Shown here piece after piece: positions 2,995 to 57,371 of a stretch of DNA of 64,000 bases. How positions within the stretch are numbered: the stretch's first letter is position 1; each line of letters begins with the position of its first letter. The notes under the pieces were generated by a model. It made no database searches, was not told the origin of the DNA, and worked only from the letters and a program-made list of their open reading frames with translations. The translations under genes and the position numbers were made by a program. The stretch spans positions 18,814 through 82,813 of the forward strand of contig MNDR01000081.1 of the NCBI GenBank assembly GCA_001915025.1, in the 5' to 3' direction. Source of the stretch: Gemmatimonadetes bacterium 13_2_20CM_2_65_7 (GTDB lineage Bacteria > Gemmatimonadota > Gemmatimonadetes > Gemmatimonadales > GWC2-71-9).

Positions 2995-3336
2995 TCACGT
3001 TTCGCCACTCGCGTCATCCGACGGCGCGCCTTGGGTGAGCCAATCGCGAAACGACCCGGCCCCCAGGGCCAAGCGCCACTCCTCGAAGATCGACAAGGCC
3101 ATCGCGCGCATGCCGCCCTCTGCCGGTCCCGCCGCCGCGCACTGCTCCAGCAGCCACGCTTCAAACTCATCCGGCGCTGGATCGGCTGTGACGGCGCGGT
3201 CGAGCAGATCGCGTTTTATCGCGAGCCCGATCGCATCGGGCGTCGTGTCCCGCTTGCGACGTTTCCGCCGGCCTTCCGAGGCTCCGAGGGCGGCGAGCAG
3301 CTCGTGACAGACTTCGGCAGGTCGTGGAGAGGTCAT
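2995..3336 (-). CDS. Hypothetical protein (113 aa), last gene of the fdh operon
   Basis: ATG at 3336 makes an ATGA overlap with the fdhE stop (3333-3335). No recognisable motif. Confidence 0.35.
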   Translation of the reverse strand: MTSPRPAEVCHELLAALGASEGRRKRRKRDTTPDAIGLAIKRDLLDRAVTADPAPDEFEAWLLEQCAAAGPAEGGMRAMALSIFEEWRLALGAGSFRDWLTQGAPSDDASGET

Positions 3337-4181: not shown

Positions 4182-4366
4182 TTCACCCTCGGGGTCTTGC
4201 ACGGCGTCTTGTAGTAGATCTTGGCGCCGGCGTGGAGCTGCACGACCGCACCGTGGTTGCCCGGATCCGCACCGGGTCCGCCGCCGCGCGTTCGGCCGGC
4301 CTCGGGGCTCGTCGCGCAGGCGACCAGGCCGGCGGCGAGGAAGGGAACCCACCAGCGCGCGGTCAT
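4148..4366 (-). CDS. Small lipoprotein, unknown function (72 aa)
   Basis: MTARWWVPFLAAGLVAC lipobox. ATGA overlap with the stop of the upstream NrfD-like gene (4363-4365). Confidence 0.4.
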   Translation of the reverse strand: MTARWWVPFLAAGLVACATSPEAGRTRGGGPGADPGNHGAVVQLHAGAKIYYKTPCKTPRVKCSGPLPDAGT

Positions 4367-5238
4367 CGTGCCACGACCGAAGCGACGCGATGATACTCGA
4401 TCGAATTGGACGCGAGCAGGACGACGCAGCGCAGCAGGAAGCCGCCGAGCAGGACCATCACTGCCGGATTGCGGAGGGCTCCGGCGCCGGCGGGCTTCAG
4501 GTGCAGCCGCAGCGGCCACAGGATGCCGGCGCCGACCACGCCCACGATGAGCAAGAGTCCCCACACGCTCAGCCACGCTTTCGCCACGGTCCCGAGAGAG
4601 ACGAGGAAGACGATCAAGAGCAGCAGCTCGACGATGAGCGCCCGCGCGTCGAATGTCGTGACCCAGCGGAGCGAGCGCTCCGTGGCGCCACGCCCCGGCG
4701 CGAATAACGCGATCGCCGCGGCGCCGGTGGACGCGCCGGACGCGAGGAACAGCGCTCCCAGCCAGGGGCTATCGGCCCAGATGGGTCGGTTGGTGACCGA
4801 GAGGAGGACGCCGGTGTACCCCGCGACGAAAAAGCCGAGCAGTCCGCCAACGGCGGCGATCAGTTTGGCGGGCGTCCCCCCTGTTTCGGCGTACCACGAT
4901 ACGAACGCGCAGGCGCCGAACAGCAGCAGCGCCCATGCGCCGAACGAGATCGGAGAGAAGCTCTTGAACATGAGGTGCGGGAAGTTGTCCGACTGGAACA
5001 GCATGTTCAAGAAGCGAAGCGACCGCCCCAGGTCGAGCGTCAGCAAGAGCCCCGAGAGCACCGCGCCCCAGAACGCCAACGAGTAGCCGGTGCGGATCAC
5101 TGGCCGGTCCTCTGGCCGCCCGAACCATTCGAGCACCGCGGCGAGGAAGTACGCACCACCGGCGATGCCGCCAACGAAGAAGTACGGAATGATGAACCAG
5201 GTCCAGTGCGGCGATGCCGTGACGAATGTGTCGGACAT
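4363..5238 (-). CDS. NrfD/PsrC-like integral membrane subunit of formate dehydrogenase
   Basis: About 8 predicted TM helices. N-terminus HWTWFIIPYFFVGGIAGGAYF is typical of the NrfD family. TAATG overlap with the preceding Fe-S subunit. Confidence 0.8.
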   Translation of the reverse strand: MSDTFVTASPHWTWFIIPYFFVGGIAGGAYFLAAVLEWFGRPEDRPVIRTGYSLAFWGAVLSGLLLTLDLGRSLRFLNMLFQSDNFPHLMFKSFSPISFGAWALLLFGACAFVSWYAETGGTPAKLIAAVGGLLGFFVAGYTGVLLSVTNRPIWADSPWLGALFLASGASTGAAAIALFAPGRGATERSLRWVTTFDARALIVELLLLIVFLVSLGTVAKAWLSVWGLLLIVGVVGAGILWPLRLHLKPAGAGALRNPAVMVLLGGFLLRCVVLLASNSIEYHRVASVVAR

Positions 5239-40302: not shown

Positions 40303-40941
40303 CTAGGCGTCGGGCGGCACCGTCACCGGTGCGAACTTGCGCCGCTCCGCCGTGTGCGCGCGCAGGTCCGCCGCGGTCTTGATGACTACAAGCAGCACCA
40401 ACGTCGGCAGCGGCGATCCGAGCAACATCACGATCCAGCCGCCGAACAGCATCGTGAGGTGAAGCACGATAACTCGGCTGTAGGGCTGCCCCATCAGTGC
40501 ATTCAGCGAAGCGCGCTGGTATTCGCCGTTCTTCAGGTAGTTCCGGTAGAAGGAGAATCCGTGGCTGGCGACGAGGCTGGCAACACCCCAGCCCAGCTGA
40601 TTGGCGCCAATCGCCGATATCACGGTGGGAATCAGGTTGAAAGGGTCCGGCCCTTTGGGACCGAAGAACGCCACGACCAGCACGCCGTGGATGTAGGTGA
40701 ATCCTCCGAAGTGCACGATGAAGAACGGAATGAGAAACGCCTTCCCCAGCCAGTAGACGGGCTGGCGCGGCTGCGCGAGCAGCATCTTGGCGACGTTGAA
40801 GCCACCCACGACCACGTTCTCGAGCCAGTAGAGCAGCACCAACGGGAACACCGTCCAGCCGAGGAACAGGACACCCGCGACCGGAAAGGCATTCGCCAGC
40901 AGGAGGATGAAGAGGGAAGGAGTCACGGCGAAAGTATACAT
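40303..40941 (-). CDS. Polytopic membrane protein (DUF6498-like, from memory)
   Basis: Six hydrophobic helices. LYWLENVVVGGFNVAKML and FIVHFGGFTYIHG motifs. Confidence 0.55.
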   Translation of the reverse strand: MYTFAVTPSLFILLLANAFPVAGVLFLGWTVFPLVLLYWLENVVVGGFNVAKMLLAQPRQPVYWLGKAFLIPFFIVHFGGFTYIHGVLVVAFFGPKGPDPFNLIPTVISAIGANQLGWGVASLVASHGFSFYRNYLKNGEYQRASLNALMGQPYSRVIVLHLTMLFGGWIVMLLGSPLPTLVLLVVIKTAADLRAHTAERRKFAPVTVPPDA

Positions 40942-40950
40942 TATCGAGGA

Positions 40951-41556
40951 GTGAACCCAGTCCTCCAGGTCCAGGATTTACGCTACGAATTGTTGGGAGA
41001 CGGACGAGCGCTCGTCGACGGCGTTTCGTTTACCGTGGGCGTCGGAGAAACACTCGTGCTGCTCGGGCGCAGCGGGTCGGGGAAAACCACGACGTTAAAG
41101 CTCGTGAACCGTCTTCTCGTGCCGACGAACGGCGCCGTGCTGATCGCAGGCGAGCCGGAGGATCGCATCGAGCGGCGCGTGCGCGAGCTGCTCGTCCTGG
41201 TCGGTCTCGATCCCGATACGTTCGGTGCCCGCTTTCCGCACCAGCTCTCCGGCGGCCAACGGCAGCGCGTCGGCGTGGCCCGCGCCCTCGCCGTCGACCC
41301 GCCGCTGCTGCTCCTCGACGAGCCGTTCGGCGCGCTCGACCCGATCACGCGCCTCGAGCTGCAGCGCGAATTCCGCGGCCTCCAGGGCAGACTCGGAAAG
41401 GCTATGGTTTTCGTCACGCACGACGTGCGCGAGGGACTGTTGCTCGGCACGCGCCTCGGGTTGCTCGATGCCGGGCGGCTCATCTTCCTGGGAACGCCAG
41501 ATGAATTCCGCGCCAGCGCCTTGCCCGAGGTCCGTCAATTCATGGAAGCCGCCTGA
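40951..41556 (+). CDS. Osmoprotectant-type ABC transporter ATP-binding protein lacking the Q-loop segment
   Basis: GTG 40951 follows GAGGA. Walker A GRSGSGKTT, signature LSGGQRQRVGVARAL, Walker B LLLLDEPFGALD, VTHD. Only about 60 aa separate Walker A from the signature, against about 95-100 in this family (see finding). Confidence 0.75.
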   Translation: MNPVLQVQDLRYELLGDGRALVDGVSFTVGVGETLVLLGRSGSGKTTTLKLVNRLLVPTNGAVLIAGEPEDRIERRVRELLVLVGLDPDTFGARFPHQLSGGQRQRVGVARALAVDPPLLLLDEPFGALDPITRLELQREFRGLQGRLGKAMVFVTHDVREGLLLGTRLGLLDAGRLIFLGTPDEFRASALPEVRQFMEAA

Positions 41557-41591
41557 GGCTATTCCAGTTCTACGCCCGGCACGCGGGCGAA

Positions 41592-42182
41592 GTGGGGCTG
41601 CTCCTCGGCCAGCACATCGGCCTCGTGGCGATCTCGACCGGCTTCGCCTTGCTCATTGGTCTGCCGCTGGGCGTCCTCGTGGCGCGCCGGCCCGCCTGGC
41701 GGCGACCAGTCCTCGGCCTCGCGAACGTGTTCCAGACCGTCCCCAGTCTCGCGCTGTTCGGTCTCCTGATTCCGGTGTTCGGCATCGGCGCGTGGACCGC
41801 GATCACCGCCCTCGTCGTGTACGCGCTGCTGCCGATCGTGCGCAACACGTACGCGGGGATCACGGGCGTGGACCCGGCCGTCCGTGAGGCGGGTCGAGGG
41901 ATGGGGATGACCGACGGCGAGCTACTGCGACTCGTCGAGCTGCCGCTCGCCGCCGGCGTCATCCTCGCGGGTGTGCGCGTGGCGACGGTGGTGAGCGTCG
42001 GCATCGCGACCATTGCAGCCGCGATCGGAGCGGGCGGGCTCGGCGTCTACATCTTTCGCGGCGTGGCGACGGTGGATGACACGCTCATCCTTGCGGGCGC
42101 TATTCCTGCCGCGTTGCTCGCGCTGCTCGCGGATGCATTGCTCGGATTGGCAGAACGGAGGCTCGTCTGGCGCCCACGATAG
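41592..42182 (+). CDS. Osmoprotectant ABC transporter permease (OpuCB/ProW-like)
   Basis: FQTVPSLALFGLLIP, EAA-type loop AVREAGRGMGMTDGELLRLVELPLA. The conserved-looking upstream segment FQFYARHAGE has no canonical start, so the start is uncertain. Confidence 0.8.
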   Translation: MGLLLGQHIGLVAISTGFALLIGLPLGVLVARRPAWRRPVLGLANVFQTVPSLALFGLLIPVFGIGAWTAITALVVYALLPIVRNTYAGITGVDPAVREAGRGMGMTDGELLRLVELPLAAGVILAGVRVATVVSVGIATIAAAIGAGGLGVYIFRGVATVDDTLILAGAIPAALLALLADALLGLAERRLVWRPR

Positions 42183-42196
42183 TCCGTCTGCTGCTC

Positions 42197-43039
42197 GTGG
42201 CGATCGTTTTGTCGGGGTGTGGACGACGGGATCACATCGTCGTCGGCGCGAAGAACTTCACCGAGTCCGACCTGCTGGCCGAGATCGTCGCGCAGCAGAT
42301 CGAGCGCCGTACTGGACTGCCGGTCGAGCGCCGCCTGCACCTCGGCGGCACCTTCGTGTGCGACCGCGCCATCAAAGCCGGCAATATCGACCTGTACGTC
42401 GAGTACACGGGCACGGCGTTCACGGCGATCCTGAAGCAACGGCCGATCTCCGATCCCGACAGTGTGTATCGCTTCGTCGCGGCGACGTACGCGCGGCAGT
42501 TCCAGTTGCAATGGACCGCGCCGCTCGGCTTCAATAATACGTTCGCGATCCTGGTGCGCCGCACGGATGCGCAGCGCTATGGCTTGAGGTCGATTGGCGA
42601 TCTCGCCCGGGTGGCACCGCGCTGGAAAGCGGCATTCGGTTATGAGTTCCTGGAGCGCGCAGACGGCTTTGCGGGTCTCGCGAAGGTGTACGGCTTGACG
42701 TTCTCACGGCCGCCCAGCGCAATGGATCTCGGTCTCACGTACCGCGCGTTGGCTGACCATCGAGTGGACGTGATCGCCGGCAACTCGACCGACGGGCAGA
42801 TCGCGGCTCTCGATCTGGCGGTTCTGATCGACGATCACCGGTACTTCCCACCCTACCAGGCTGCGCCGATCGTGCGAGCGACGACCCTGGAGAAGTATCC
42901 TGCGGTAAGCCGCGCGCTCGCGGAGTTGGGAGGCAAGATCTCCGACGCCGAGATGCGCCGACTGAACGCGCTGGCAGACGTGGAGCATAAGGACATCGCT
43001 GAGATCGCGCGGGCGTGGCTCGCTGAACGGATCCCCTGA
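42197..43039 (+). CDS. Glycine betaine/osmoprotectant ABC transporter substrate-binding lipoprotein
   Basis: Lipobox VLSGC. VGAKNFTESDLLAEIVAQ...GNIDLYVEYTGTA...FNNTFAI... is typical of the OpuCC/OpuBC family. Confidence 0.8.
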   Translation: MAIVLSGCGRRDHIVVGAKNFTESDLLAEIVAQQIERRTGLPVERRLHLGGTFVCDRAIKAGNIDLYVEYTGTAFTAILKQRPISDPDSVYRFVAATYARQFQLQWTAPLGFNNTFAILVRRTDAQRYGLRSIGDLARVAPRWKAAFGYEFLERADGFAGLAKVYGLTFSRPPSAMDLGLTYRALADHRVDVIAGNSTDGQIAALDLAVLIDDHRYFPPYQAAPIVRATTLEKYPAVSRALAELGGKISDAEMRRLNALADVEHKDIAEIARAWLAERIP

Positions 43040-43050
43040 GGAGAGTTCCC

Positions 43051-43497
43051 ATGCCAGAAGCTGACGGCGTCGTGGTTGTGCATGGTGGTGCGCGCGGGTT
43101 TGTCCAGGAGATCACCACGGGCCGGCATCATCTTGTCGCGGACGAGCCCGTCGCCGCCGGTGGGACAGATCGCGGCCCCGGGCCTTACGATCTGCTGCTG
43201 GCGGCACTCGGCTCTTGCATGTCCATGACGATGGCGTTGTACGCGCGAGCGAAGCAGTGGCCACTCGAGACAGTGGTCGTCCGCTTACGGCACTCGCGGA
43301 TTTACGCCAGGGATTGCGCCGATTGCGTGGTTAGAGACGATACGATGCTGGATCGCATCGAGACGGAGGTTCAAGTCTCCGGCGCGCTCACACCTGAGCA
43401 GCAGCGCAGGCTTGTGGAGATCGCCCACAAGTGTCCGGTGCATCGCACGCTCAAGTCCGAGATCAACATTCGGGAAGTGTCGACGCTCACTGCTTAG
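43051..43497 (+). CDS. OsmC/Ohr-family peroxiredoxin-like protein
   Basis: GPGPYDLLLAALGSCMSMT...KCPVHRTLK, the two conserved Cys contexts of OsmC. Confidence 0.85.
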   Translation: MPEADGVVVVHGGARGFVQEITTGRHHLVADEPVAAGGTDRGPGPYDLLLAALGSCMSMTMALYARAKQWPLETVVVRLRHSRIYARDCADCVVRDDTMLDRIETEVQVSGALTPEQQRRLVEIAHKCPVHRTLKSEINIREVSTLTA

Positions 43498-45100
43498 AGT
43501 CGGTCGTGGGGAATGGGGGGGGGGACAACGCGATGTAGTGTGTCGTGCGTTCGCGACCGACTACGAGCGCACGGATGCGGTCTTCCACCTCACGATCCGA
43601 TTTCGTGGTCCGATCATGTTGGCGGAGGTGCTCCGCCCATGACTCCACCAACCAACACTCCACACAGCGTCGCGGGTCAGCGGAATCCACGAACAGCTCC
43701 CAGAAGACGGCGCCATCGCGGCGGCGAATCGGTCGCAGCTGGCTGCGCATTGCATCGACAAAGGCGGCGCGCCGTTCCGGTTCGACGATGTACTCGACCG
43801 TCACGAGCACCGGCCCGGCTTCGGCGTCGAGGCTTTCGGCCACGACGGGATCGGGCCAGTTCTGTGAGTGCTCCAGATTGCCAGCGTCGGCAGCCGCGAG
43901 GCGGAACCGCGGTATCACCGTCAAGCCGAGTAGCAGCGCACCTCCAGCAGCGGTGAGGGCCCACTGGGTGCCGGCTTGGTTCGCGATGACCCCCCAGAGC
44001 AGCGCGCCGAGCGCGAGCGACCCGAAGAGGATCAACGTCGCTATCGAAAGCGCGCGCCCTCGGACCCACGCGGCGGCGCCGCGCTGTGCCGCCAGAATCA
44101 GACTCGATAGGATCGTGAGCCAGCCCGCGCCCGCGATGACCATGACGGCGACCAAGACCGCGAAGTTGGTCACCCACGCGAGCGACAGGCATCCGAGCGC
44201 GAACGCAGCAGTGGCTATGGCCGTGATCGCGTCCGTCGACCAACGCTTGCGCCAAGCCGGTAATACGGACGCTCCGATTAAACCACCGAGTCCAAGGCTG
44301 CCGACGAGAACTCCGTACGAAACGGGGCCACGACCCAGGGTTACCCTCACGACCAAGGGGAGCAGCGCCCAGAGCGCGCTGGCGAAGCCGACGAAGGTAG
44401 CGGCGCGGACGGCGACTGTGCGCAGCGCCGGGGCGTAGCGCACATAGCGCACGCCGGCCTGCATGGCCGACACGAGGCGCTCGGCGGGCAGGCTCGCACG
44501 AACAGGCTCACGCTTCCAGCGCCAGAGGACGTAGAACACGCCGACGACGGAAACGGCATTAATCAGGAAGGCGGGGCCTGGCCCACCCACGACGATGATC
44601 ACGCCGGCGATGGCCGGACCCAGCGCACGCGCGATGTTGATTGCGACCGCGCCGAGTCCCACGGCCGCCGGCAACTCCTCGCGCGACACGGTTTCGGGGA
44701 TGATCGCTTGCCAGGAGGGCAGGTCGATCGCGCTGCCCGCGCCGATGGCGAGCGTTATCAGGAGCAACATCCATGGCTGCACCACGCCTGCGATCGTCAG
44801 CACCCCCAGCAACCCTGCCACCAGGAACAACCACACCTGTGCGATGAGCAGGATGCGGCGCCGATCGAGCACGTCCGCGAGCGCGCCCGCGGGAAGCGCG
44901 AGCAGAAATAGGGGCAGGGTGGTGGCGACTTGCACCAGCGAGACCATCAGCGGCGACGGCGCGAGCAATGTCATGAGCCAGGCGGCCGCGGAGTCGTGCA
45001 TCCACGTGCCGATGTTCGACGTGACGTCGGCGATCCAGAGACCGCGGAACAGTGGCCGGCGGAGCGGGCTCCAGGCGGAAGGCGCGGTCGTGTCGGCCAA
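43487..45100 (-). CDS. MFS transporter with C-terminal cytoplasmic ABM-like domain (likely exporter of the adjacent operon)
   Basis: TTG start 15 nt after the upstream stop. Twelve TM helices. Soluble tail VLVTVEYIVEPERRAAFVDAMRSQ...FWELFVDSADPRRCVECWLVESWAEHLRQH. Confidence 0.8.
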   Translation of the reverse strand: MADTTAPSAWSPLRRPLFRGLWIADVTSNIGTWMHDSAAAWLMTLLAPSPLMVSLVQVATTLPLFLLALPAGALADVLDRRRILLIAQVWLFLVAGLLGVLTIAGVVQPWMLLLITLAIGAGSAIDLPSWQAIIPETVSREELPAAVGLGAVAINIARALGPAIAGVIIVVGGPGPAFLINAVSVVGVFYVLWRWKREPVRASLPAERLVSAMQAGVRYVRYAPALRTVAVRAATFVGFASALWALLPLVVRVTLGRGPVSYGVLVGSLGLGGLIGASVLPAWRKRWSTDAITAIATAAFALGCLSLAWVTNFAVLVAVMVIAGAGWLTILSSLILAAQRGAAAWVRGRALSIATLILFGSLALGALLWGVIANQAGTQWALTAAGGALLLGLTVIPRFRLAAADAGNLEHSQNWPDPVVAESLDAEAGPVLVTVEYIVEPERRAAFVDAMRSQLRPIRRRDGAVFWELFVDSADPRRCVECWLVESWAEHLRQHDRTTKSDREVEDRIRALVVGRERTTHYIALSPPPFPTTDSKQ

Positions 45101-45115: not shown

Positions 45116-45895
45116 CTAACTACCGGTCGAAAACCGCACGGCGCCGATCTCGGTCAAATCGCGTAGCGTCGCCGCGATTTCGCCGGGACGAAGACCGGCC
45201 GCGCGCGCCAGGTCGTCCACCGTACGCGCGCCATCGGCGAAGCGCACCACGGAAGCGATGGCGTCGCTCGCGCGTGCCACCGCCACGCGTCCGTGACGCG
45301 AGCGCGCCACGATGAGGCGCGTTGCGCGCCGCGGAGCCTCGGGGGGCGTTGTCCACGGTTGCAGCAACTGGGGCAACACCGTTGGCAGGTCGTACTCCAG
45401 CTCGAGCAGCTCGGTGCCTTCAACCAGCTCGGGGGGGGGCGGGGGGGGCGGGGGCGGAACCACGGCCGGCCGATCGTCGTCGCGACCCGTATCGCGCCAC
45501 ACGCGCGGACCAGCCTCCACCACCATCATCGCTTCCTGGTAGCGCAGCAAATCCTTGTGATATGGCACTTCCTCGCCGGCGACGTACGCCGTGACCAGGC
45601 GCGCGACAGCATGCGCCGTGGCCCGCTCACCGAGCACCGCAGTCGCGAGCAGCGCGTCGAAGCCCGGTTGCCGCAACACCGCCTCGGGCCAGCGTGCGGT
45701 CACGCGCGCGAGCGCCCGCGAGTACTTGAAGAAATGGACAATGCGCTCGTGATAGAAATGCCGGGCGAGAAACCGCGCGAACCGCTCGACTTTCCCGGCG
45801 TCCACGAGCCCGCGCCCGCGCCACTCGGCCGACGCCCGGTAGGGCGCGTCGGCCAAGGCACGGATCACGTCGTCTTGCAGGGCCCGATCGTTCAC
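45116..45895 (-). CDS. Candidate MNIO partner protein: helical N-domain, poly-Pro linker, RRE-like winged helix
   Basis: GTG 45895 is in a GTGA overlap with the DUF692 stop. A PPPPPPPPPP linker. C-terminus RLIVARSRHGRVAVARASDAIASVVRFADGARTVDDLARAAGLRPGEIAATLRDLTEIGAVRF resembles PqqD/RRE domains (beta strands followed by a wHTH). Confidence 0.5.
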   Translation of the reverse strand: MNDRALQDDVIRALADAPYRASAEWRGRGLVDAGKVERFARFLARHFYHERIVHFFKYSRALARVTARWPEAVLRQPGFDALLATAVLGERATAHAVARLVTAYVAGEEVPYHKDLLRYQEAMMVVEAGPRVWRDTGRDDDRPAVVPPPPPPPPPELVEGTELLELEYDLPTVLPQLLQPWTTPPEAPRRATRLIVARSRHGRVAVARASDAIASVVRFADGARTVDDLARAAGLRPGEIAATLRDLTEIGAVRFSTGS

Positions 45896-46671
45896 AGCGC
45901 CGCCCGGATGCGGTCGACGCTTGAGAAGAGGACGTCGGCCGTGAGCGACGGTGAGAACGCGTCGAACGTCACCGCTCTTGTCGCAGGGCAGCGCGTCAGC
46001 GCGTGCGCCATGAAGTCGAGCATCGCGTCGCTCGGTGCCGTCGGAGCGATCCACGGACCCTCGAGATCGCGGTCTTGCTCCACGCCCGCGACGTGCACTT
46101 CGACCACATGCTCCAGCGGGAACTCGGCGAGCCAGGCTTGGGGCGTGAGGCCACGGTAATGCGCCTCGAGCCACACGTGCGGCAGATCGAGCAGGAACCC
46201 GGTTCCGGTCGCGTCGAAGAAGCGCCGCAGCCATACGGGCTCAGGCATCTGACTGGCGTGCACATCGAAGAAACCGGGGATGTTCTCCATGACCAGCGGT
46301 TGGTCGAGGCGCGCCTTGAGGGCGTTGGCGTTGGTGACGAACCGCGCTAGAAACTCTTCCGTGTAGAGCGGCGGGAAGACGTAGTTGAGATTGTAGGTCC
46401 CGTCCTCCGTGTGCAGGCACTGAAAGTGCTCGGCCACCCAGGGCGAGTCGTACAACCCGGCCAGGGAGCGGGCCCGTTCGATGGCGCGATCATCGAGCGG
46501 CTCCGAGAGCTGACCCAGATAGTCATGCAGCAGCAGCGTGTAGCGCTGTTTGATCGCGGGCCAGTGCCGATCGCCCGCCGCCGGTGGGTCAGCCATGGCC
46601 AGATGATCGATGTTGCGGGCCGCCGCGAGCTCGGCGCCGAGGTGCGGATTGTAGAATGCGCCGACCATCAT
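45892..46671 (-). CDS. DUF692 / MNIO-family (MbnB/TglH-like) multinuclear non-heme iron enzyme
   Basis: TIM-barrel xylose-isomerase-like pattern. LLLHD, SPWVAEHF, LVMENIP, FLLDLPHVW and EVHVAG correspond to the conserved His/Glu/Asp-bearing strands of UPF0276/DUF692. ATGA overlap with the upstream gene. Confidence 0.7.
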   Translation of the reverse strand: MMVGAFYNPHLGAELAAARNIDHLAMADPPAAGDRHWPAIKQRYTLLLHDYLGQLSEPLDDRAIERARSLAGLYDSPWVAEHFQCLHTEDGTYNLNYVFPPLYTEEFLARFVTNANALKARLDQPLVMENIPGFFDVHASQMPEPVWLRRFFDATGTGFLLDLPHVWLEAHYRGLTPQAWLAEFPLEHVVEVHVAGVEQDRDLEGPWIAPTAPSDAMLDFMAHALTRCPATRAVTFDAFSPSLTADVLFSSVDRIRAAL

Positions 46672-47690
46672 ACGATGAATCCCTGTTCCGCGAGCCGATC
46701 CACGAACACCTTCACCTGCGCCGCGATCATCGGTTTATCGCCTCGGTCCGTCCATTCGGCGGCAATCGCTTCGTAGCGCGTCCGGCCGTCGAGCTGCGCG
46801 ACGATGAAGCGCTCGCGCTCCCCCCAGGTCGCGGCCGCGGCGTGAGCCGCGGTGGTTGCGCGCGCGGGCGCGAACTGGGCTGCGACGATGGCGTCGATCG
46901 ATCGCGCACTGTCGGGTTCGAGTCGCCTTGCGCCGGCCAGGTTTTGATCGACTTGCTCGACGGTGCGTGCGCCGGCCAACACGATGTTGACGCCAGGTCG
47001 CGAATACACCCATGCAAGGGCCAGCGCGGCGAGCGTGAGACCGGCGCGCTGCGCGATTGGGCGCAGTCGTTCGATCACCTGTTGCCGCCGTGCGAATTCC
47101 GCTCCCTTGAACCAATAGATCGCGCCGCGGTGATCGCCGGGCGCAAATATCGGGGCGGAGGCAGCGCCGTACTTGCCGGAAAGCAGCCCCGATGCCAGCG
47201 GCCGGTATGCCAGAAATCCCAGTCCCTGCTGTTGGCACGTCGGGATCTCGCGCTCTTCCGCGTCGCGGTCGAACAGGTTGTACGCACCCTGATAGGTAAC
47301 GATCGGAGCGATTTCTGTCGCGCGCTGGATCTGCAAGTGCGTCGCGTTGCACAGTCCAATGGCGCGCGCCTTGCCTTGCTCCTGGAGCTCGTGGAGCTGC
47401 TCGAGCTGCGCTTCCCACCCGGGCAGCGCCTCGTGCAGCTGTAGCAGATCGACGTAATCGCTGTCGAGCCGTCGCAACGATGCCTCGAGCGATGTGCGTG
47501 GATCAGCGCGCGGGCCGACCTTCGTGGCAATCGCAATCGCTTCGCGCCGCTCGCGCAAGACACGGCCGTCGTGCTGTCCTGACCCACTCCAGCCGCTACC
47601 TCCGACCGCCCAGGCGCCGAACCCCAGCATGGGTTGGGTGCCGGTAAAACGCGACAGGGGCCCGAAGTTCATTCGGGCCCCCGCATGCAT
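46668..47690 (-). CDS. Aldo/keto-reductase-like protein lacking the DTA..YG catalytic segment, with a PqqD-like C-terminal tail
   Basis: AKR pattern LGFGAWAVGG...IATKVG...SLRRLDSDYVDLLQLH...GKARAIGLCN...YQGAYNLFDR...GFLAYRPLASGLLSGKY...VLAGARTVEQVDQNL. About 31 aa are missing between GQHDG and RVLRERRE. Tail FIVAQLDGRTRYEAIAAEWTDRGDKPMIAAQVKVFVDRLAEQGFIV. Start at ATG 47690 (GGAG SD) or 47672. Confidence 0.65.
   Translation of the reverse strand: MHAGARMNFGPLSRFTGTQPMLGFGAWAVGGSGWSGSGQHDGRVLRERREAIAIATKVGPRADPRTSLEASLRRLDSDYVDLLQLHEALPGWEAQLEQLHELQEQGKARAIGLCNATHLQIQRATEIAPIVTYQGAYNLFDRDAEEREIPTCQQQGLGFLAYRPLASGLLSGKYGAASAPIFAPGDHRGAIYWFKGAEFARRQQVIERLRPIAQRAGLTLAALALAWVYSRPGVNIVLAGARTVEQVDQNLAGARRLEPDSARSIDAIVAAQFAPARATTAAHAAAATWGERERFIVAQLDGRTRYEAIAAEWTDRGDKPMIAAQVKVFVDRLAEQGFIV
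47657..47681 (-). promoter_or_regulatory. Perfect 10-bp GC-rich hairpin just downstream of the short ORF, covering the alternative AKR start codon
   Basis: mRNA GGGGCCCGAA-UGAAC-UUCGGGCCCC. ATG 47672 sits at the loop/stem edge. A UUUU run follows 11 nt later. Confidence 0.4.
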
Positions 47691-47703
47691 GCTGCCGCTC
47701 CGG

Positions 47704-47796
47704 TTAGGAGTGGCAGGTGGGCTGCAGCTCGCTCGTCTCGACGATTTCGGGACGATGACAGCTGGGCACCAGTTCCTGCGTTTCAACGATCTGCAT
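47704..47796 (-). CDS. Candidate RiPP precursor peptide, 30 aa: MQIVETQELVPSCHRPEIVETSELQPTCHS
   Basis: GGAGG, then 4 nt, then ATG. Tandem 12-aa repeat IVET(Q/S)EL(V/Q)P(S/T)CH, with synonymous third-position differences between the two DNA copies. First gene of the MNIO operon. Below the ORF-track length cut-off. Confidence 0.5.
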   Translation of the reverse strand: MQIVETQELVPSCHRPEIVETSELQPTCHS

Positions 47797-47938
47797 ATAA
47801 CCTCCAATTGGAATAAATGGGGTGGTACTACTCGTCTCGCAATAATGCCGCGACCGCCTCAACGGTTCCCCACCCCCGACCCCCTTGAAATGGGCATGGT
47901 TGCATGAACGCGCAAGGCCCGCTACCCTCGGGAGCCCG

Positions 47939-48880
47939 ATGATTCAGATCGCGAGCCTCCTCACCGAGCAAGCCCTCGCCGACGAGTTCGTCAATTCGTT
48001 GGCGGCCCGGCGCCTCGACGAGAAGTTCTTCTATTGGTTCCCCCTCTCCGTGCGTGCCTGGCTGGCGCTCTGCTCCGATGGAGCGTACCGGAACTTCGTC
48101 CGCTCGCGATCACTGATCGCGCAATCCAGGGCGGAGCTTGCGGGCCAGACGCCCGCGGGCGAGATCGAGGTCCTCAGTCTCGGCGCAGGACAAGGGGACA
48201 AGGACGTGCTGCTGCTCGAGGCGTTGCGCGGGCACGGCCGGAGTGTCCGCTATGTCCCCGTGGACGCGAGCCAGGGCCTGCTCGAAATCGCGTGCCAGAG
48301 CGCCGGCGACGCCGGGTTTCCCGCGCAGGGAATCAAGGCCGACGTATCGCGCGCCGATCATCTCCGCGCCCTGGCAGCCGATTCTCGAACTCCGCCACGA
48401 CTCGTGATGATGCTGGGGAACACGCTCGGCGCGTTCGATCCGCTGGCGATGGCGCGCGCGCTGCGGGAACTCCTGCGGCCGGCCGATCTCCTGCTCGTGG
48501 ATGGTGAGGTGTACGCCGGCGATACCGTCGCCGGCTATGACAACCTGCTGAATCGCCGGTTCGCGTGGGCTCCGCTGCACTCGGTCGGCATCGACGAAGC
48601 GGATGGCGAGCTGCGGTTCGAAGTGCGGGACGACCCGCGCCTTCCCGGTCTCTACCCGCTCGCGAAATACTTCGCGCCCAGCCGTGACGTCGTGGCCCGC
48701 GTTGGCGGCGAAACACTGGCTCTCGCCGCCGGCGAACGCGTCGAAATGAATCACTCGTACAAATACTCGGCGGACACATTCACCCGGATTCTCGCAGACG
48801 CGGGACTCAAGGTCCGCTGGCGCGGAACGAGCGACGACGGCCGATTCCTCATGGTGCTCGCGGAGCGAGGGCTGCGATGA
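47939..48880 (+). CDS. SAM-dependent methyltransferase, EgtD-like (Methyltransf_33-type) fold
   Basis: KFFYWFP..., VLSLGAGQGDKDVLLLEAL, YVPVDASQGLL, MLGNTLGAFDP, LLLVDGEV, and the C-terminal HSYKYS pattern run parallel to the EgtD motifs (KyfYD, ELGsGts.Kt, Y.PiDis, flGStiGNf, LLlG.D, S.Ky). Start at ATG 47939 (GGAG SD). Confidence 0.5.
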   Translation: MIQIASLLTEQALADEFVNSLAARRLDEKFFYWFPLSVRAWLALCSDGAYRNFVRSRSLIAQSRAELAGQTPAGEIEVLSLGAGQGDKDVLLLEALRGHGRSVRYVPVDASQGLLEIACQSAGDAGFPAQGIKADVSRADHLRALAADSRTPPRLVMMLGNTLGAFDPLAMARALRELLRPADLLLVDGEVYAGDTVAGYDNLLNRRFAWAPLHSVGIDEADGELRFEVRDDPRLPGLYPLAKYFAPSRDVVARVGGETLALAAGERVEMNHSYKYSADTFTRILADAGLKVRWRGTSDDGRFLMVLAERGLR

Positions 48881-50148
48881 GCGCCCGAATCATCCGTACC
48901 TACTTCGCGATCACATTTCTCTTCAACCTGGCCATGTCCCTCATCTGGGGCGTTGACACGTTGTTCAAGCTCGGCGCCGGCCTCGACATTTTCCAGGTCA
49001 TGCTCACCAACGCCGCATTCACCGCCGGCTCCATGGTGTTCGAGATCCCGACCGGCGTGGTGGCCGATACCGTCGGGCGCCGAGTGTCGCTGCTGCTGAG
49101 TCTCGGCACACTGTTCATCACGACGTTGCTTTACGTCAGCGCGGCGTGGCGCGGCTGGGGCTTCGCCGCGTTCTGCTGGATCTCGGTGTTTCTAGGCTTG
49201 GGATACACGTTCTACACGGGAGCGGTGGATGCCTGGCTCGTGGACGCCCTGAAGGCCACGGGCTACAGCGCGCCGCTCGAACCGGTCTTCGCACGCGGGC
49301 AGATGATGTTCGGCGTGGGAATGTTGCTCGGGACGATCTCGGGGGGATTGCTGGGCCAGATTCATCTCTACATCCCATATCTCGTTCGCGCCGGGGTGGT
49401 GATCCCGCTGTTCGCGCTGGCGTGGTTCGGGATGCGGGAGGTCGGCTTCACTCCCCGCGCACTCGAGTTGCGCCGCGTGCCGGCCGAGCTGCGGCGGTTG
49501 TTCGTCGAGGGGATGGATTATGGGCTGCATCATCGAGTCGTCCGGCCGGTGATGCTCGCGTCGCTCGTGACGATGAGCTTCATGATTTTTGGCTTCTACA
49601 GTTGGCAGAAGTACTTCCTCGATCTATTGGGGAAGAATCTCATCTGGGTCAACGGTGTGATCAGCTCGCTCGTCGGGCTCGCGCTGATCGCTGGGAACGC
49701 GCTCGTGCCCAGTGTGTCGCGCGTGGTCGGCACGCGTACCGGCGTGCTCACGCTCAGCATCGTCGTCCAGGCGGCGACCGCGACCGCGTGTGGCGCGCTG
49801 GGACTGCTCGCCCCGGGTCCCGCTACGTTTTATATCGTCGTGCTGCTGTATCTCGTGTATGGCGTGGCACTGGGCGTATCGATGCCGGTCAAGCAAGGCT
49901 ACCTGAACGCCCACATCCCATCCGCTCAGCGCGCGACGATCATTTCACTCGACGCGTTTTTCGCGAGCCTGGGCGGTGTGGTGGGCCAGACCACCTGGGG
50001 GTACCTGGCGCGGCTGCGCGGTCTTGCGACGGCGTGGGTAGCGGGAGGGTTGGGTCTCGTGCTCGCGGTGCCGCTCTATCTACAGGCGCGCCGCCGCGAC
50101 AAGACACTGGACCGGTTCGAACAGGAGGCTTCGCATGTCACAGCCTGA
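48877..50148 (+). CDS. MFS transporter
   Basis: Twelve TM helices. DTVGRR motif between TM2 and TM3. ATGA overlap with the upstream methyltransferase. Confidence 0.8.
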   Translation: MSARIIRTYFAITFLFNLAMSLIWGVDTLFKLGAGLDIFQVMLTNAAFTAGSMVFEIPTGVVADTVGRRVSLLLSLGTLFITTLLYVSAAWRGWGFAAFCWISVFLGLGYTFYTGAVDAWLVDALKATGYSAPLEPVFARGQMMFGVGMLLGTISGGLLGQIHLYIPYLVRAGVVIPLFALAWFGMREVGFTPRALELRRVPAELRRLFVEGMDYGLHHRVVRPVMLASLVTMSFMIFGFYSWQKYFLDLLGKNLIWVNGVISSLVGLALIAGNALVPSVSRVVGTRTGVLTLSIVVQAATATACGALGLLAPGPATFYIVVLLYLVYGVALGVSMPVKQGYLNAHIPSAQRATIISLDAFFASLGGVVGQTTWGYLARLRGLATAWVAGGLGLVLAVPLYLQARRRDKTLDRFEQEASHVTA

Positions 50149-50340
50149 TGGGGTCGTAGTGCGGGGTGCGTGACCAAGAACACGATGCTCGACCAGATCG
50201 CGCTCGAGGTCGAGATCGACGGTGCCCTGACCGCGGAACAGCGGGCGCAGCCGCTGGAAATCGGGGAGAGGTGTCCGGTTCATCGAACGCTCAAGTCCGA
50301 GATCGTTATCGGAACGACGGCACAACCCTCAACGGAATAA
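50135..50340 (+). pseudogene. OsmC-family gene remnant with a large out-of-frame internal deletion
   Basis: ATG 50135: MSQPDGVVVRGA* compared with MPEADGVVVVHGGARG of the 43051 OsmC. A second frame from about 50167 reads CVTKNTMLDQIALEVEIDGALTAEQRAQPLEIGERCPVHRTLKSEIVIG, compared with CVVRDDTMLDRIETEVQVSGALTPEQQRRLVEIAHKCPVHRTLKSEINIR. The roughly 90 central residues are missing. Confidence 0.6.
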
Positions 50341-53462: not shown

Positions 53463-56400
53463 TCAGTGGGCCACCCCGAACGTGTACACGGTGCGCGAGC
53501 GGTAGGTCGCACCGGGACGCAGGATCGTGGAAGGGAAGTTGGGATGATTGGGCGAGTCGGGAAAATGTTGCGTCTCGAGGCACAGCCCCGTCCGATACGC
53601 GTAAGCGAGGCCACCCTTTCCTTTAATGGTGCCGTCGAGAAAGTTGCCCGAGTAGAATTGCACCCCCGGCTCGGTCGTGCTGATCTCAACCGTCCGCCCG
53701 CTGGCGGGGTCTACGAGACGCGCCGCAGGTACCAGGCCGGTTTGGCTGCCGCGATCGAGCACCCAGTTGTGGTCATACCCACGGCCATAACGCAACTGCG
53801 TGTTCTCCTGCGCAAGGCGCTCGCCGATCCTCGTCGGGGTGCGAAAATCGAACGGCGTCCCCGCCACCGGAGTGATTTCGCCCGTCGGAATCAGCGTCGA
53901 GTCAACCGGCGTGAACGCGGCTGCGTTGAGCGTCAGCATGTGGTCGAGAATCTCGGCGCCCCCCCCACCGGTCGTGCCGAGCAAGTTCCAGTAGGTGTGC
54001 TGTGAGAGATTGACCGGCGTGGCTTTGTCGCTGGTGGCTTCGTAGTCCACGACAAGCTCATCACGCGGAGTGAGCGTGTATGTCACGCGCGTGACGAGCG
54101 TTCCCGGGAAGCCTTCTTCTCCATTCTTGCTCGTGTAGCGCAGCGTGACTCCGACGCCGCTGTCGGTCTGGAACGGCTCGCCGGTCCACAGGACCTTGTC
54201 GAATCCGCGCACCCCGCCATGCAGCGTGTTCGGGCCATTGTTCGTCGCAAGGCGATAGGTGGTGCCGTCGAGCGTGAACTGCCCACTGGCAATCCGATTG
54301 GCATAGCGGCCGACGATCGCACCGAAGTACGGCGAGTCTTTCAGGTATCCGGCGAGACTGTCGTAGCCGAGCACGATGTCGTCGAAGTGGCCGGAGCGGT
54401 CCGGTGTGTGGACGACGGTGATGATGCCGCCGTACGTCATCACCCGGACCTCGATGCCGTGCGCATTGGTGAGCGTCAACAGCTCGACGCTGCGCCCGTC
54501 GGGCAGCTTCCCGAATGGCGCGCGCGTCACGCCAGCGTGCGATGGTGTTGTCGTCGTGTCGCGGAGCACAAAGAGCACCGAGGGATCAATTGGATAGCGC
54601 CCGAATTGCGCGCCATAGATCGCCAGCCCACCTGGTAGCGCGGCATCAACCTCCAACCTAACGATCATCTCACCGGTGCGGGCACCTTCACGAATCGCGT
54701 CGGCGGGAACGGGCACGTGCAACAGCTCGCCGTATGATCCGGCTTCGTAGAGATGTCCATCATGCGGCTGCGCATGCCAGCTCAGAATGCCGCGCGAATC
54801 GGCGGGATCGTCGGGCAGGTCCCAGCGGGGGCCCGCAAGCTGACCGTTGACGCGCACCGTGACGGCGCTGCGAAACGGCGTCACACCAGTCATCGGATAG
54901 CTGTTGGGATTGCGGCTCGGATCGTGGAAGCCGCCGCCGCGCATGTAATCGCCATTGTCCGCCATCGTCGAGTCACGATCCTTGCCGTTCAAACGCTTGG
55001 CGGATGCCTCGACGAGAAATGTCGCGCTTGCGACGTCCTTGACGTCGAGCCCGGCGGGCCACGGAATGCGGTACTCGAAGAACCCGCTGCCGGCGCCGTT
55101 CAGTTTGTGATCGCCGAGGACGTTCCATTGTTTGAGCGTCCAATGGGCATCACGCACGGCGGTGGCCGGCACATGGGCGATCCGCACGCGCCGTCCGTCA
55201 GCCAGCGTCGCAACCGCCGGCGCCTCGCCTTCTACGATGAATGTCGTGAAGTTGCGCTGTAGGACGGAGTCTTTCGCATCCTCGAGCCGCGTCGCCAGCA
55301 CCAACGTAGCCGGCTCGTTCGGCATTGTGATCGTGAGCGGCGCGAGGGGCTGCGACATCCACGGCCGGTACGGCACGCGCCTCACGGACGTGTCCCACGT
55401 GCGTCGCTCGCCTAGCGCATTCCACCCGTACAGCTCGGCACGCAGCGTAAGTGAGTCACCGAAGCTGGTGCTGCCGGTCAGGAACGACGCGTAGAGCGGC
55501 ACCTCAACGTGCTCGCCGGGACGAACCGTGCGGCTCAGCTCCGGATCGCCCACCGCGATGTAGAGTGGCGCGTGCAGGTCGCGCAGCGACATGCCCGGCA
55601 CGATGTCGCCGAAGCCCGTTTCCTTCCACGAACGGTCGTAGCGCCAGTAGCCGTTCCACTCGTTGATCACGTCATGGTGCTCCGTATACAGCCAGCCGCA
55701 GATCTTGGGGTGACGGCGAAATGCGTTGATGGCGCGGTGGTAATCCCAGCTCCAATCCACGTCGCCGGTGCTGCCCTCGTAGCCCCACACGTTCCCGAAC
55801 TCCGAGTTACACATCGGCTGCCGTGCCTGCCGCCAGGCCGACCGGAAGTTCCAGGTCGAGCCCGGGAACGTGCTGTCGCTCACCTGCTGGTCGTGCGTCT
55901 CCCAGCGCCAGCCAGGCAAGTACTCGTGCCACGTATTGAGATCGGTCTCGGTGTGTCCGCTGCCGCAACACACGGAGTTGTCTTCGATGAGTCGTGTGGG
56001 ATCGAGCGACTTCGCCAAACGGTAATCGCGCACGACGCGACGCTCGGTCTCTGGCAAATAGCGATCGCGTCCATCGACTTTCGTCTCGAGACCCCATGTC
56101 TCGTTGAAGAGCACCCAGGCGAACACCGACGGATGATTGTAGTCGCGTTCGATCATGCCGCGCAGCGCGGTATCGTGCTCGCGAAACGCCGCGGAATCGG
56201 GTGGTCCCCACCAGTTCGGTACATCGGCCATGATGAGCACACCCAAGCGATCGGCCCAATACAGTTTGCGCGGCGCTTCGATCTTGACGTGTTCTCTGAG
56301 TCCGTTCAGGCCGATCCTACGGGCGCGCTGGATCTCGTCGCGGAGCACGCTGTCGGAAGGAAACGTGTAGTAGCCTTGCGGATGGTACGCCTGGTCGAGC

Positions 56401-57371
56401 GCCACCTGCAGATAAACGGGCGTGCCGTTGAGCGCGACGTAGCGGTACGTCGTGCCGGGCACGTTGACGACGCCGATCGTCCGCATGCCGAAATAGGTTT
56501 GCACGCGGTCTTCGGCCATTCCGGTGCCGCTCACACGCACGACGACGTCGTGCAAGAACGGATCATCGAGCGACCAGCGACGTGCGCCGGGCAGCGGCAC
56601 GTCGAGGTGCACGGAGCGTGTGCCGCGGGGAATGCGATGCGTCACCGTGGGCCCCGTGGCCCCCCCCCCGCCGGCGCGATTGGTGAACGCGAGTTGCAGC
56701 GTGAGCGCCCGCGGCGCCGGCTCGAGCAGTCGCACGTCGACGCCGACCCCCGCGAGGTCGGCCTCCGGTGTGAAGTGCACAAATTCCAATGGATCGCTGC
56801 CGCGCGCCTCGAGGTACACGGTCTGCCACATGCCGCGCGCTTTTCCGTAGCCCTGCTTGCCCTCGAGCTTGAAGGGGTGCGGTGAGTCGTCCACGCGGAC
56901 CACGAGCCGCTGCGACGCACCAGTTGTTGCCTGCGTCAGCTCGAAGGAGAACGGGGTGTAGCCGCCTTGATGGTCGCCCAACTTCCGGCCATCGAGCCAC
57001 GCGCTTGTCCGCCAGTCCGATGCGCCGAACACGAGAAACACGCGACGTCCCCCCCCGTGCCACGCGGCGGGCACGGTGATGGTGCGGCCATACCAACCGA
57101 TGTCACCGCTATCGGGAATCCCGGAGAGCGGCGCGCCCCAGGAAAACGGCACGAGAATCTCCCGTCCTGCGGGTAGCCCGCGGCTCGGCCAGCCCTCGCG
57201 TTCCCCGCTGTCTTGTGGATCGAACGCGAAGTGCCAGCGGCCGTTGAGATTGAGCCATTGTGCGCGTTGGAAGTCGGGGCGCGGATGCTCAAGAAGCGGA
57301 ATACTGTCGGTGGTGCTGGAGTGACTCGCGGTGCCGAACAGTGCCAGGAGGAGCGTTACGCCTCGTTTCAC
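53463..57371 (-). CDS. Fusion protein: glycoside hydrolase family 2 (beta-galactosidase-like) + aldose 1-epimerase (mutarotase)
   Basis: Signal peptide. GH2 sugar-binding domain (WYGRTITVP...ASDWRTSAWLDGRKLGDHQGGYTPFSFEL). Catalytic NHPSVFAWVLFNETW and CNSEFGN. C-terminal roughly 350 aa: VRVMTYGGIITVVHTPDRSG...IVLGYD...YFGAIVGRYANRIA...TLHGG..GFDK..W...HTYWNL...GYDHNWVL...PGVQFYSGNFL is GalM-like. Confidence 0.8.
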   Translation of the reverse strand: MKRGVTLLLALFGTASHSSTTDSIPLLEHPRPDFQRAQWLNLNGRWHFAFDPQDSGEREGWPSRGLPAGREILVPFSWGAPLSGIPDSGDIGWYGRTITVPAAWHGGGRRVFLVFGASDWRTSAWLDGRKLGDHQGGYTPFSFELTQATTGASQRLVVRVDDSPHPFKLEGKQGYGKARGMWQTVYLEARGSDPLEFVHFTPEADLAGVGVDVRLLEPAPRALTLQLAFTNRAGGGGATGPTVTHRIPRGTRSVHLDVPLPGARRWSLDDPFLHDVVVRVSGTGMAEDRVQTYFGMRTIGVVNVPGTTYRYVALNGTPVYLQVALDQAYHPQGYYTFPSDSVLRDEIQRARRIGLNGLREHVKIEAPRKLYWADRLGVLIMADVPNWWGPPDSAAFREHDTALRGMIERDYNHPSVFAWVLFNETWGLETKVDGRDRYLPETERRVVRDYRLAKSLDPTRLIEDNSVCCGSGHTETDLNTWHEYLPGWRWETHDQQVSDSTFPGSTWNFRSAWRQARQPMCNSEFGNVWGYEGSTGDVDWSWDYHRAINAFRRHPKICGWLYTEHHDVINEWNGYWRYDRSWKETGFGDIVPGMSLRDLHAPLYIAVGDPELSRTVRPGEHVEVPLYASFLTGSTSFGDSLTLRAELYGWNALGERRTWDTSVRRVPYRPWMSQPLAPLTITMPNEPATLVLATRLEDAKDSVLQRNFTTFIVEGEAPAVATLADGRRVRIAHVPATAVRDAHWTLKQWNVLGDHKLNGAGSGFFEYRIPWPAGLDVKDVASATFLVEASAKRLNGKDRDSTMADNGDYMRGGGFHDPSRNPNSYPMTGVTPFRSAVTVRVNGQLAGPRWDLPDDPADSRGILSWHAQPHDGHLYEAGSYGELLHVPVPADAIREGARTGEMIVRLEVDAALPGGLAIYGAQFGRYPIDPSVLFVLRDTTTTPSHAGVTRAPFGKLPDGRSVELLTLTNAHGIEVRVMTYGGIITVVHTPDRSGHFDDIVLGYDSLAGYLKDSPYFGAIVGRYANRIASGQFTLDGTTYRLATNNGPNTLHGGVRGFDKVLWTGEPFQTDSGVGVTLRYTSKNGEEGFPGTLVTRVTYTLTPRDELVVDYEATSDKATPVNLSQHTYWNLLGTTGGGGAEILDHMLTLNAAAFTPVDSTLIPTGEITPVAGTPFDFRTPTRIGERLAQENTQLRYGRGYDHNWVLDRGSQTGLVPAARLVDPASGRTVEISTTEPGVQFYSGNFLDGTIKGKGGLAYAYRTGLCLETQHFPDSPNHPNFPSTILRPGATYRSRTVYTFGVAH

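Follow-up and report, generated by a model that had tools for sequence, protein, structure and literature searches.

The 64-kb stretch of the Gemmatimonadetes bacterium 13_2_20CM_2_65_7 genome studied here (hereafter the window; all coordinates are in window numbering) carries a 30-codon open reading frame (ORF) that is a real gene. Purifying selection acts on it, and the genes found together with it stay linked across phyla. We judge it likely, at a probability of roughly 80%, that this ORF is the translated precursor of a family of peptides made on ribosomes and modified after translation (RiPPs) that depends on a multinuclear nonheme iron-dependent oxidase (MNIO; DUF692) and does without a Sec signal or a separate long leader. 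The gene and its elements, all read directly from the sequence, are the following:

47704..47796, minus strand: gene of the precursor peptide, 30 codons and a TAA stop, encoding MQIVETQELVPSCHRPEIVETSELQPTCHS (ATG at 47796..47794, TAA at 47706..47704)
47801..47805, minus strand: Shine-Dalgarno sequence GGAGG, 4 nt 5' of the precursor ATG
47755..47790, minus strand: repeat unit 1, IVETQELVPSCH, residues 3-14
47710..47745, minus strand: repeat unit 2, IVETSELQPTCH, residues 18-29

This direct reading confirms the sequence, coordinates, and GGAGG that an earlier first-pass annotation of the window had given for the ORF. The peptide begins with MQIVETQEL, has no hydrophobic N-terminal segment, and is the product of the single ORF across the entire window that shows paired P[ST]CH motifs. 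Eight codons differ between the two DNA copies of the repeat, five of them synonymously (GTT/GTC, GAA/GAG twice, TGT/TGC, and CAT/CAC) and three nonsynonymously (Q/S, V/Q, and S/T), a tally that the first-pass annotation had reported exactly. Its proposal that this frame is the selected one holds up among orthologs. The MNIO encoded downstream has 853 homologs at E <= 1e-20, the nearest of them from soil Gemmatimonadales, and our comparison covers 80 loci (L001-L080; one genome per species, 61-97% MNIO identity) from Gemmatimonadales, Gemmatimonadaceae, Actinomycetota, and metagenome-assembled genomes of Terriglobales/Acidobacteriales. An intact precursor ortholog lies on the same strand upstream of the MNIO gene in 73/73 loci that have upstream sequence (70 of the 80 loci by a six-frame regular-expression scan, plus L061, L068, and L074 by other scans or by hand); in the loci beyond these 73, contig ends cut off the region. 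The 30-codon form comes in 51 distinct nucleotide versions, whose variable sites are distributed 13/8/25 over the three codon positions and whose pooled Nei-Gojobori ratio of nonsynonymous to synonymous changes (dN/dS) is 0.19 in the precursor frame versus 1.47 and 2.85 in the other same-strand frames. All 70 orthologs with sequence 5' of the gene have GGAGG or GGGAGG 4-9 nt before the ATG.

The same DNA could also be read, one frame over (+1), as an N-terminal extension of the downstream aldo-keto reductase (AKR) starting from TTG 47807, with no separate gene at all. This long frame (46668..47807) is open in the window and in 50 of the 51 ortholog versions, as expected from the G+C content here, at which shadow frames often stay open. 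However, its dN/dS of 1.47 speaks of no purifying selection, reductase homology begins only at ATG 47690, 13 bases past the precursor stop, and 7 loci carry the peptide gene immediately before the MNIO gene without any reductase. The check that the first-pass annotation proposed as a possible refutation, a search of orthologous loci for frameshifts or stops in the precursor frame, returned 73 intact frames and so leaves the peptide gene standing. That annotation had already preferred the short ORF over the long one, and we consider the chance that the long reading is the true one to be practically negligible.

The 148 distinct repeat units of the family follow the consensus [IVL][VI]E[TAS]xE[LVI]xP[TS]CH, with E(-8) conserved in 95%, E(-5) in 84%, and P(-2) in 98% of them, and with Cys and His invariant in both multiple alignments of precursors. 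Repeat number changes between lineages (Gemmatimonadales have 2 copies, Terriglobales 3, Actinomycetota 3-4, and Gemmatimonadaceae 4) and the motif is preserved. The C-terminal residue varies (S, A, T, I, V, R, L, or His), and Terriglobales precursors terminate exactly at the His. The family is common in soil Gemmatimonadota and found also in Actinomycetota and Acidobacteriota; this abundance and phylum spread suggest that its members probably share one ecological function, and our leading guess is the handling of metals or redox.

The precursor has no match among Pfam and NCBIfam models. An identical peptide is found on 287 public contigs (NCBI, JGI, ENA, and Logan) and two sister variants on 847 and 414, always under the name "hypothetical protein"; together, these three exact variants occupy some 1,500 public contigs, nearly all from uncultured soil Gemmatimonadota. 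A profile search with the precursor alignment, built from multi-repeat sequences, retrieved 171 clusters at 90% identity, none of them named. The first-pass description of the ORF as unannotated is thus right for the ORF track used there but not for public databases, where gene callers do list the peptide, and the gene exemplifies how 30-codon genes are dropped by ORF-length filters or end up as "hypothetical protein". Across full-text literature, mostly of the non-subscription kind, we found no paper linking MNIO/DUF692 with EgtD, ergothioneine, Gemmatimonadota, aldo-keto reductases, or the P[ST]CH motif except a single one on DUF692 and Gemmatimonadota, which concerns the six-Cys bufferin-like peptides of Gammaproteobacteria, and a 2025 paper on the MNIO landscape does not mention this precursor family. 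We regard the family as a probable new subfamily of RiPPs dependent on MNIOs, widespread and with an unprecedented combination of genes. Peptide chemistry without precedent is being found at a growing pace among MNIO enzymes, and up to now every new precursor motif has gone with a new reaction.

Only four genes are common to all four clades, namely those for the precursor, the MNIO, its partner protein, and a methyltransferase, and most Gemmatimonadales, Actinomycetota, and Gemmatimonadaceae loci have the AKR gene in addition. The window encodes the enzymes as follows:

45892..46671, minus strand: MNIO (DUF692), 259 aa, PF05114 (MbnB_TglH_ChrH) at 9e-26
45116..45895, minus strand: PME-type-2-like MNIO partner, 259 aa, with a helical N-terminal domain and a C-terminal winged-helix RiPP recognition element (RRE)
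47939..48880, plus strand: S-adenosylmethionine-dependent methyltransferase of the EgtD/EasF family, divergent from the precursor gene, PF10017 (Methyltransf_33) at 6.6e-24
46668..47690, minus strand: AKR fused to a C-terminal PqqD-like RRE, Aldo_ket_red at 8e-46

Among NCBIfam models, the MNIO scores best with ApyH (98 bits), followed by BufB (84 bits) and HvfB (45 bits), all far under the cut-offs. Its AlphaFold2 model (pLDDT 83.7) finds TglH (TM-score 0.73), 3BWW (0.72), and MbnB (0.71) as top Foldseek matches at 16-21% identity. Since the protein is about equally similar to all three and stays so far under the NCBIfam cut-offs, it is, as judged from sequence and predicted fold, a member of a separate MNIO clade. 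Residues H49, H82, E129, D162, and H193, the presumed iron ligands in the manner of MbnB and TglH, are identical in the alignment with TglH and invariant in 28 family members.

The GTG start of the partner gene overlaps the MNIO stop. Twelve of 14 partner orthologs match NCBIfam ApyI (best 7e-8; about residues 107-250 of the partner), 7/14 match HvfC, and 7/14 match Pfam NGO1945_C and winged helix-turn-helix families, while DUF2063 was found in 0/14 at E <= 0.1. MNIO precursors without a signal peptide have been described to pair with PME-type 2 partners (PMC12452194), and the domain makeup predicted for this partner, together with a precursor that appears to lack a signal peptide, fits that rule. 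With the PF05114 MNIO and its partner encoded downstream on the same strand, the proposal in the first-pass annotation of a precursor peptide with Cys-His pairs as MNIO targets gains support, and these pairs would be the predicted site of modification.

The methyltransferase gene adjoins the precursor gene divergently in every locus that has upstream sequence, with 38-41% identity for the Terriglobales proteins; its start is probably ATG 47939, where homology sets in and where GGGAG stands upstream. Orthologs carry the PGAP name "L-histidine N(alpha)-methyltransferase", the best 120 of 936 matches are all close Gemmatimonadales relatives, and EgtD is the sole PDB relative detected by sequence. 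Aligned to EgtD (4PIM), the protein keeps Y206 and S284 and has Ala for N166 and Asn for E282 (Ser in Terriglobales orthologs); these four positions (M. smegmatis numbering) are presumably the substrate contacts of EgtD. With 2/4 of them changed and a TIGR03438 score of 63 bits versus a cut-off of 290.9, we reject the assignment of this enzyme as EgtD.

The AKR of the window matches only positions 52-290 of the Aldo_ket_red profile. Compared to its orthologs it has a 102-nt (34-codon) in-frame deletion with a junction at about 47567/47568 that removes PAEREAAVRHAADRGITWFDTAPAYGNGTSEMLL, a segment present in 7/7 compared orthologs including the closest ones (L001 and L002) and holding the catalytic Asp and Tyr (FDTAPAYG). 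This suggests that the reductase of the window itself is probably inactive; the deletion would mean that an accessory gene is in decay here, or else it arose during assembly of the sequence. PqqD models match the C-terminal domain of 7/7 reductase orthologs (best 5e-5), and this fusion to an RRE implies a peptide substrate.

A further feature lies just downstream of the precursor gene:

47654..47684, minus strand: GC-rich 13-bp hairpin, 20 nt 3' of the precursor stop, within the first AKR codons

The 66-nt stretch holding this hairpin folds with a dG of -35.7 kcal/mol (z -3.65, fold of the window sequence), and the 60 nt after the precursor stop have a mean minimum free energy (MFE) of -31.6 kcal/mol, where windows drawn at random from these loci have -19.9 +/- 5.4. 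Each clade has a hairpin at this position, but its sequence differs from clade to clade, and it is followed by a terminator-like T-run in L076 and the Terriglobales loci. A scan of the window for consensus promoters and terminators had no matches, the hairpin has no adjacent T-run in the lineage of the window, and Rfam gave zero matches at E <= 1. It is plausible that the hairpin favours the precursor transcript over the enzyme transcript, which is the usual RiPP arrangement. In Gemmatimonadales it sits within the first 12 reductase codons and may also throttle translation of the reductase. On the other side of the gene, most Gemmatimonadales loci have a promoter-like block 5' of the precursor (TTGACG, 17 nt, TAGGAT or TATGGT), and unrelated sequence takes its place in the window, L001, and L002. 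The block reads AGAGTTACCGGTTGACGGGTGTGACGGCAACCCGTAGGATT at about 4655..4700 of L011, has an equivalent position in most Gemmatimonadales loci, and holds an 8-bp inverted repeat (ACGGGTTG/CAACCCGT) as a possible operator.

From these components we infer a biosynthetic scheme, including the residue to be modified, the type of modification, the binding partners, and the role in metal binding. The acidic, beta-strand-like segment [IV][VI]E[TA]xE[LV] of each unit would be bound by the winged-helix RRE of the partner and, where a reductase is present, also by its PqqD-like domain, and the following P-[TS]-C-H would be the modification site. There, the heterodimer of MNIO and partner would oxidise every Cys standing before the invariant His, with O2 and the help of its iron cluster. 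The most conservative guess at the chemistry is a 4-electron oxidation to a heterocycle of the 5-thiooxazole or oxazolone-thioamide type, which could form a metal-binding site together with the adjoining imidazole, 2 to 4 of them per peptide. The product would then be methylated by the EgtD-family methyltransferase, reduced at a carbonyl by the AKR-RRE protein in lineages with an intact copy, and exported by major facilitator superfamily (MFS) pumps, while the hairpin (a terminator in some clades) would ensure a surplus of precursor mRNA relative to enzyme mRNA. An EntS-like and another MFS exporter encoded nearby (see below) fit a secreted metallophore. Cys is the usual target of MNIOs and Cu-binding thiooxazoles are their commonest product (PMC13097082), though the analogy with these characterised enzymes is weak.

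Besides the damaged reductase of the window, several points weigh against this scheme. The MNIO is equally distant, at 16-21% identity, from all characterised members, and its best profile match, ApyH, targets a C-terminal Asp and not Cys. The thiooxazole-forming FonBC does not tolerate charge on the residue that follows Cys (PMC13097082); because this position is always His here, the chemistry may differ. The invariance of this His suggests that it participates in the reaction, helps to bind Fe, or serves recognition. Neither a metal-homeostasis gene conserved in all clades nor a conserved protease was found in the cluster. Finally, relatives of the EgtD-type enzyme N-methylate free amino acids, whereas the His of the precursor is internal.

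Alternatively, the peptide might serve as a mere scaffold on which the MNIO joins or transfers the Cys sulfur to the His imidazole (as a thioether or thiohistidine), after which the His unit would be excised, methylated at its alpha-amine to a betaine by the EgtD-like enzyme, exported by MFS pumps, and recaptured by a quaternary-amine ATP-binding cassette (ABC) importer, with one copy made per repeat. Such a route would agree with the invariant Cys-His adjacency in every repeat of every clade and with a methyltransferase that is the sole tailoring enzyme linked in all clades and whose known relatives N-methylate free aromatic amino acids. In Gemmatimonadales this enzyme is co-operonic with an importer of the OpuB/OpuC/EgtUC class, a linkage that survives rearrangement; small quaternary amines are the ligands that such binding proteins close around, and the window has a gene for an OsmC peroxiredoxin next door. 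Multi-copy precursors would suit small excised products, and TglH and ApyH are MNIOs that cleave or excise at modified residues. Yet 3/4 clades are without the importer and neither a protease nor a C-S lyase is conserved, which is why we think this route unlikely; the changes of N166 and E282 at the presumed His contacts, the low EgtD-model score, and an RRE-fused reductase that suggests tailoring on the peptide point the same way, and our literature searches found no precedent. If true, it would be a third, peptide-templated route to thiohistidines of the ergothioneine or ovothiol type, beside the sulfoxide-synthase and anaerobic EanB routes.

Still less probable is an unmodified cytoplasmic micropeptide with a metal-binding or regulatory function, next to an MNIO that acts on another substrate. 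Cys-His pairs can themselves be metal ligands, but the precursor is linked to the MNIO and its RRE-bearing partner in all 73 loci and lies directly before the MNIO gene wherever the reductase is absent; moreover, the two RRE-type domains of the cluster require a peptide ligand, and no other small Cys-containing ORF common to the clades was found in the fetched loci. The strong hairpin within 20 nt of a short ORF, with its T-tailed terminator in some clades, also raises the thought of a transcription-attenuation leader in which ribosome stalling at Cys/His codons controls hairpin formation and read-through into the operon. Attenuators conserve only their regulatory codons, however, while here the whole unit including both Glu and the Pro is under purifying selection across phyla, and duplication involves entire units. 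Genes of Cys or His biosynthesis do not follow downstream, and when the 66 nt past the stop are folded at MFE (the coding region being outside this fold), the outcome is one dominant hairpin, a typical feature after the precursor gene of RiPP operons. We therefore hold attenuation to be very improbable and favour a modified precursor peptide.

The features of the wider neighbourhood in the window are listed here:

43487..45100, minus strand: MFS_3/EntS-like efflux transporter, last operon gene in this lineage, PF05977 at 6.8e-169, EntS 85 bits
48877..50148, plus strand: second MFS transporter, PF07690 at 2e-20, overlapping the methyltransferase stop by 4 nt
40354..43497, plus strand: possibly associated genes for a quaternary-amine ABC importer of the OpuC/OpuB/EgtU class (ATPase, permease, and binding protein) plus OsmC; Pfam ABC_tran, BPD_transp_1, OpuAC at 9.5e-61, and OsmC
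41592..42182, plus strand: importer permease, BPD_transp_1
42197..43039, plus strand: importer binding protein, OpuAC
43051..43497, plus strand: OsmC, Pfam OsmC

Of the fetched loci, just L001 and L002 have the MFS_3 gene at this place, and most Gemmatimonadales loci keep the second MFS gene in their methyltransferase operon. Just 3' of the latter, a second, shorter OsmC-like stretch (50050..50310, plus strand) has 42% identity to 43051..43497 over 88 residues. The three ABC genes immediately follow the methyltransferase gene in more than 50 Gemmatimonadales loci (about 1300..3750 in L003-L071), and in the window and L001 they have moved to the opposite flank beside OsmC with linkage kept. The importer is missing from the Actinomycetota, Gemmatimonadaceae, and Terriglobales loci (L076 has a distant, differently placed set), and because it is thus missing from three of the four clades we do not count it as core. 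Within the PDB, its binding protein comes closest to sensors derived from OpuBC (200 bits) and to EgtUC (172 bits), a comparison that does not discriminate among binders of choline, carnitine, and ergothioneine.

Other genes are inserted or adjacent in some loci. An alpha/beta hydrolase with a signal peptide lies between the reductase and MNIO genes in a subset (e.g., L027 4827..5978) and occurs in 30 loci overall, often further downstream, and an LssY_C-domain protein is encoded between MNIO and partner in 26 loci (e.g., L011 6780..7985). Both are absent from the window and are possible extracytoplasmic processing enzymes. A DUF1440 membrane protein is encoded near the cluster in Gemmatimonadaceae (L072, 3724..4308, minus strand) and Acidobacteriales (L080, 2586..3317, minus strand), and L080 also has an ArsM-like methyltransferase (3769..4614) beside the EgtD-like gene and, just upstream, an overlapping 177-aa ORF (3291..3824). 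Unrelated to the precursor cluster, the window has a 1302-aa ORF at 53463..57371 (minus strand) whose product has glycoside hydrolase family 2 domains and, at its C-terminus, an aldose 1-epimerase domain.

Among known systems, aminopyruvatide biosynthesis (ApyA/ApyH/ApyI) is nearest in its profiles: it supplies the best match for both MNIO and partner and shares a precursor without signal peptide as well as a partner with C-terminal RRE and without DUF2063. However, the target of ApyH is an Asp at the C-terminus, while the conserved Cys-His of this family is internal and its C-terminus variable, and the P450 and B12-radical-SAM enzymes have no counterpart in our clusters, which encode the EgtD-like methyltransferase and AKR-RRE instead. 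Membership was rejected given scores of 98 versus 400 bits for ApyH and at most about 30 versus 200 bits for ApyI and a precursor without C-terminal Asp. The closest solved structure is that of TglH (8HI7; TM-score 0.73 at 21% identity), and the TglHI system of 3-thiaglutamate (pearlin) biosynthesis is alike also in its Cys substrate (predicted for our family), its TglI-like partner, and a peptide that can scaffold a small molecule. TglH, though, targets a single C-terminal Cys that is added by a PEARL enzyme, while the Cys of this family is internal, encoded, and repeated, and the cluster has no PEARL or LanB-like gene.

The captophorins (bufferins, oxazolin, and fontiphorin, made by BufBC, HvfBC, and FonBC) resemble this family in that an MNIO and an RRE partner modify, or here would modify, repeated short Cys motifs, in BufB as the second-best profile match, and in a likely metal-related role. 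Their precursors have a Sec signal and motifs of the DUF2282, Lys-Cys, or Cys-Lys kind, and they employ DUF2063 PME-type 1 partners, commonly with DoxX (PMC13097082, PMC12452194). None of these features is seen here, and the His after each Cys is at odds with the substrate preference of FonBC. We thus rejected captophorin or bufferin membership for a family with DUF2063 in 0/14 partners, no Sec signal on the precursor, and P[TS]CH as its motif. The likeness to methanobactins (MbnA/MbnB/MbnC) raised in the first-pass annotation extends only to the precursor of about 30 residues and to an oxidase of the MNIO family that acts, here presumably, on Cys (MbnB TM-score 0.71), but the locus is not a methanobactin cluster: it lacks a leader-core architecture, a TonB-dependent receptor, an MbnE-type binding protein, and a MATE exporter, and the repeat motif and phyla are different. 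This assignment was rejected as well, since neither MbnB nor MbnC models are among the matches and the neighbours are MFS and OpuC-type transporters.

With EgtD and EasF of ergothioneine and ergot alkaloid biosynthesis, the methyltransferase shares its Methyltransf_33 domain, but its gene has an MNIO gene and that of a ribosomal Cys-His peptide as linked neighbours, and egtB, egtC, and egtE are absent. Compared to the characterised MNIO systems, for which none of these traits has been described, this family stands apart through its invariant Cys-His dyad, its repeats, free of leader and signal peptide and predicted to combine recognition and core, its obligatory methyltransferase of the EgtD family, and a reductase fused to a peptide-recognition domain.

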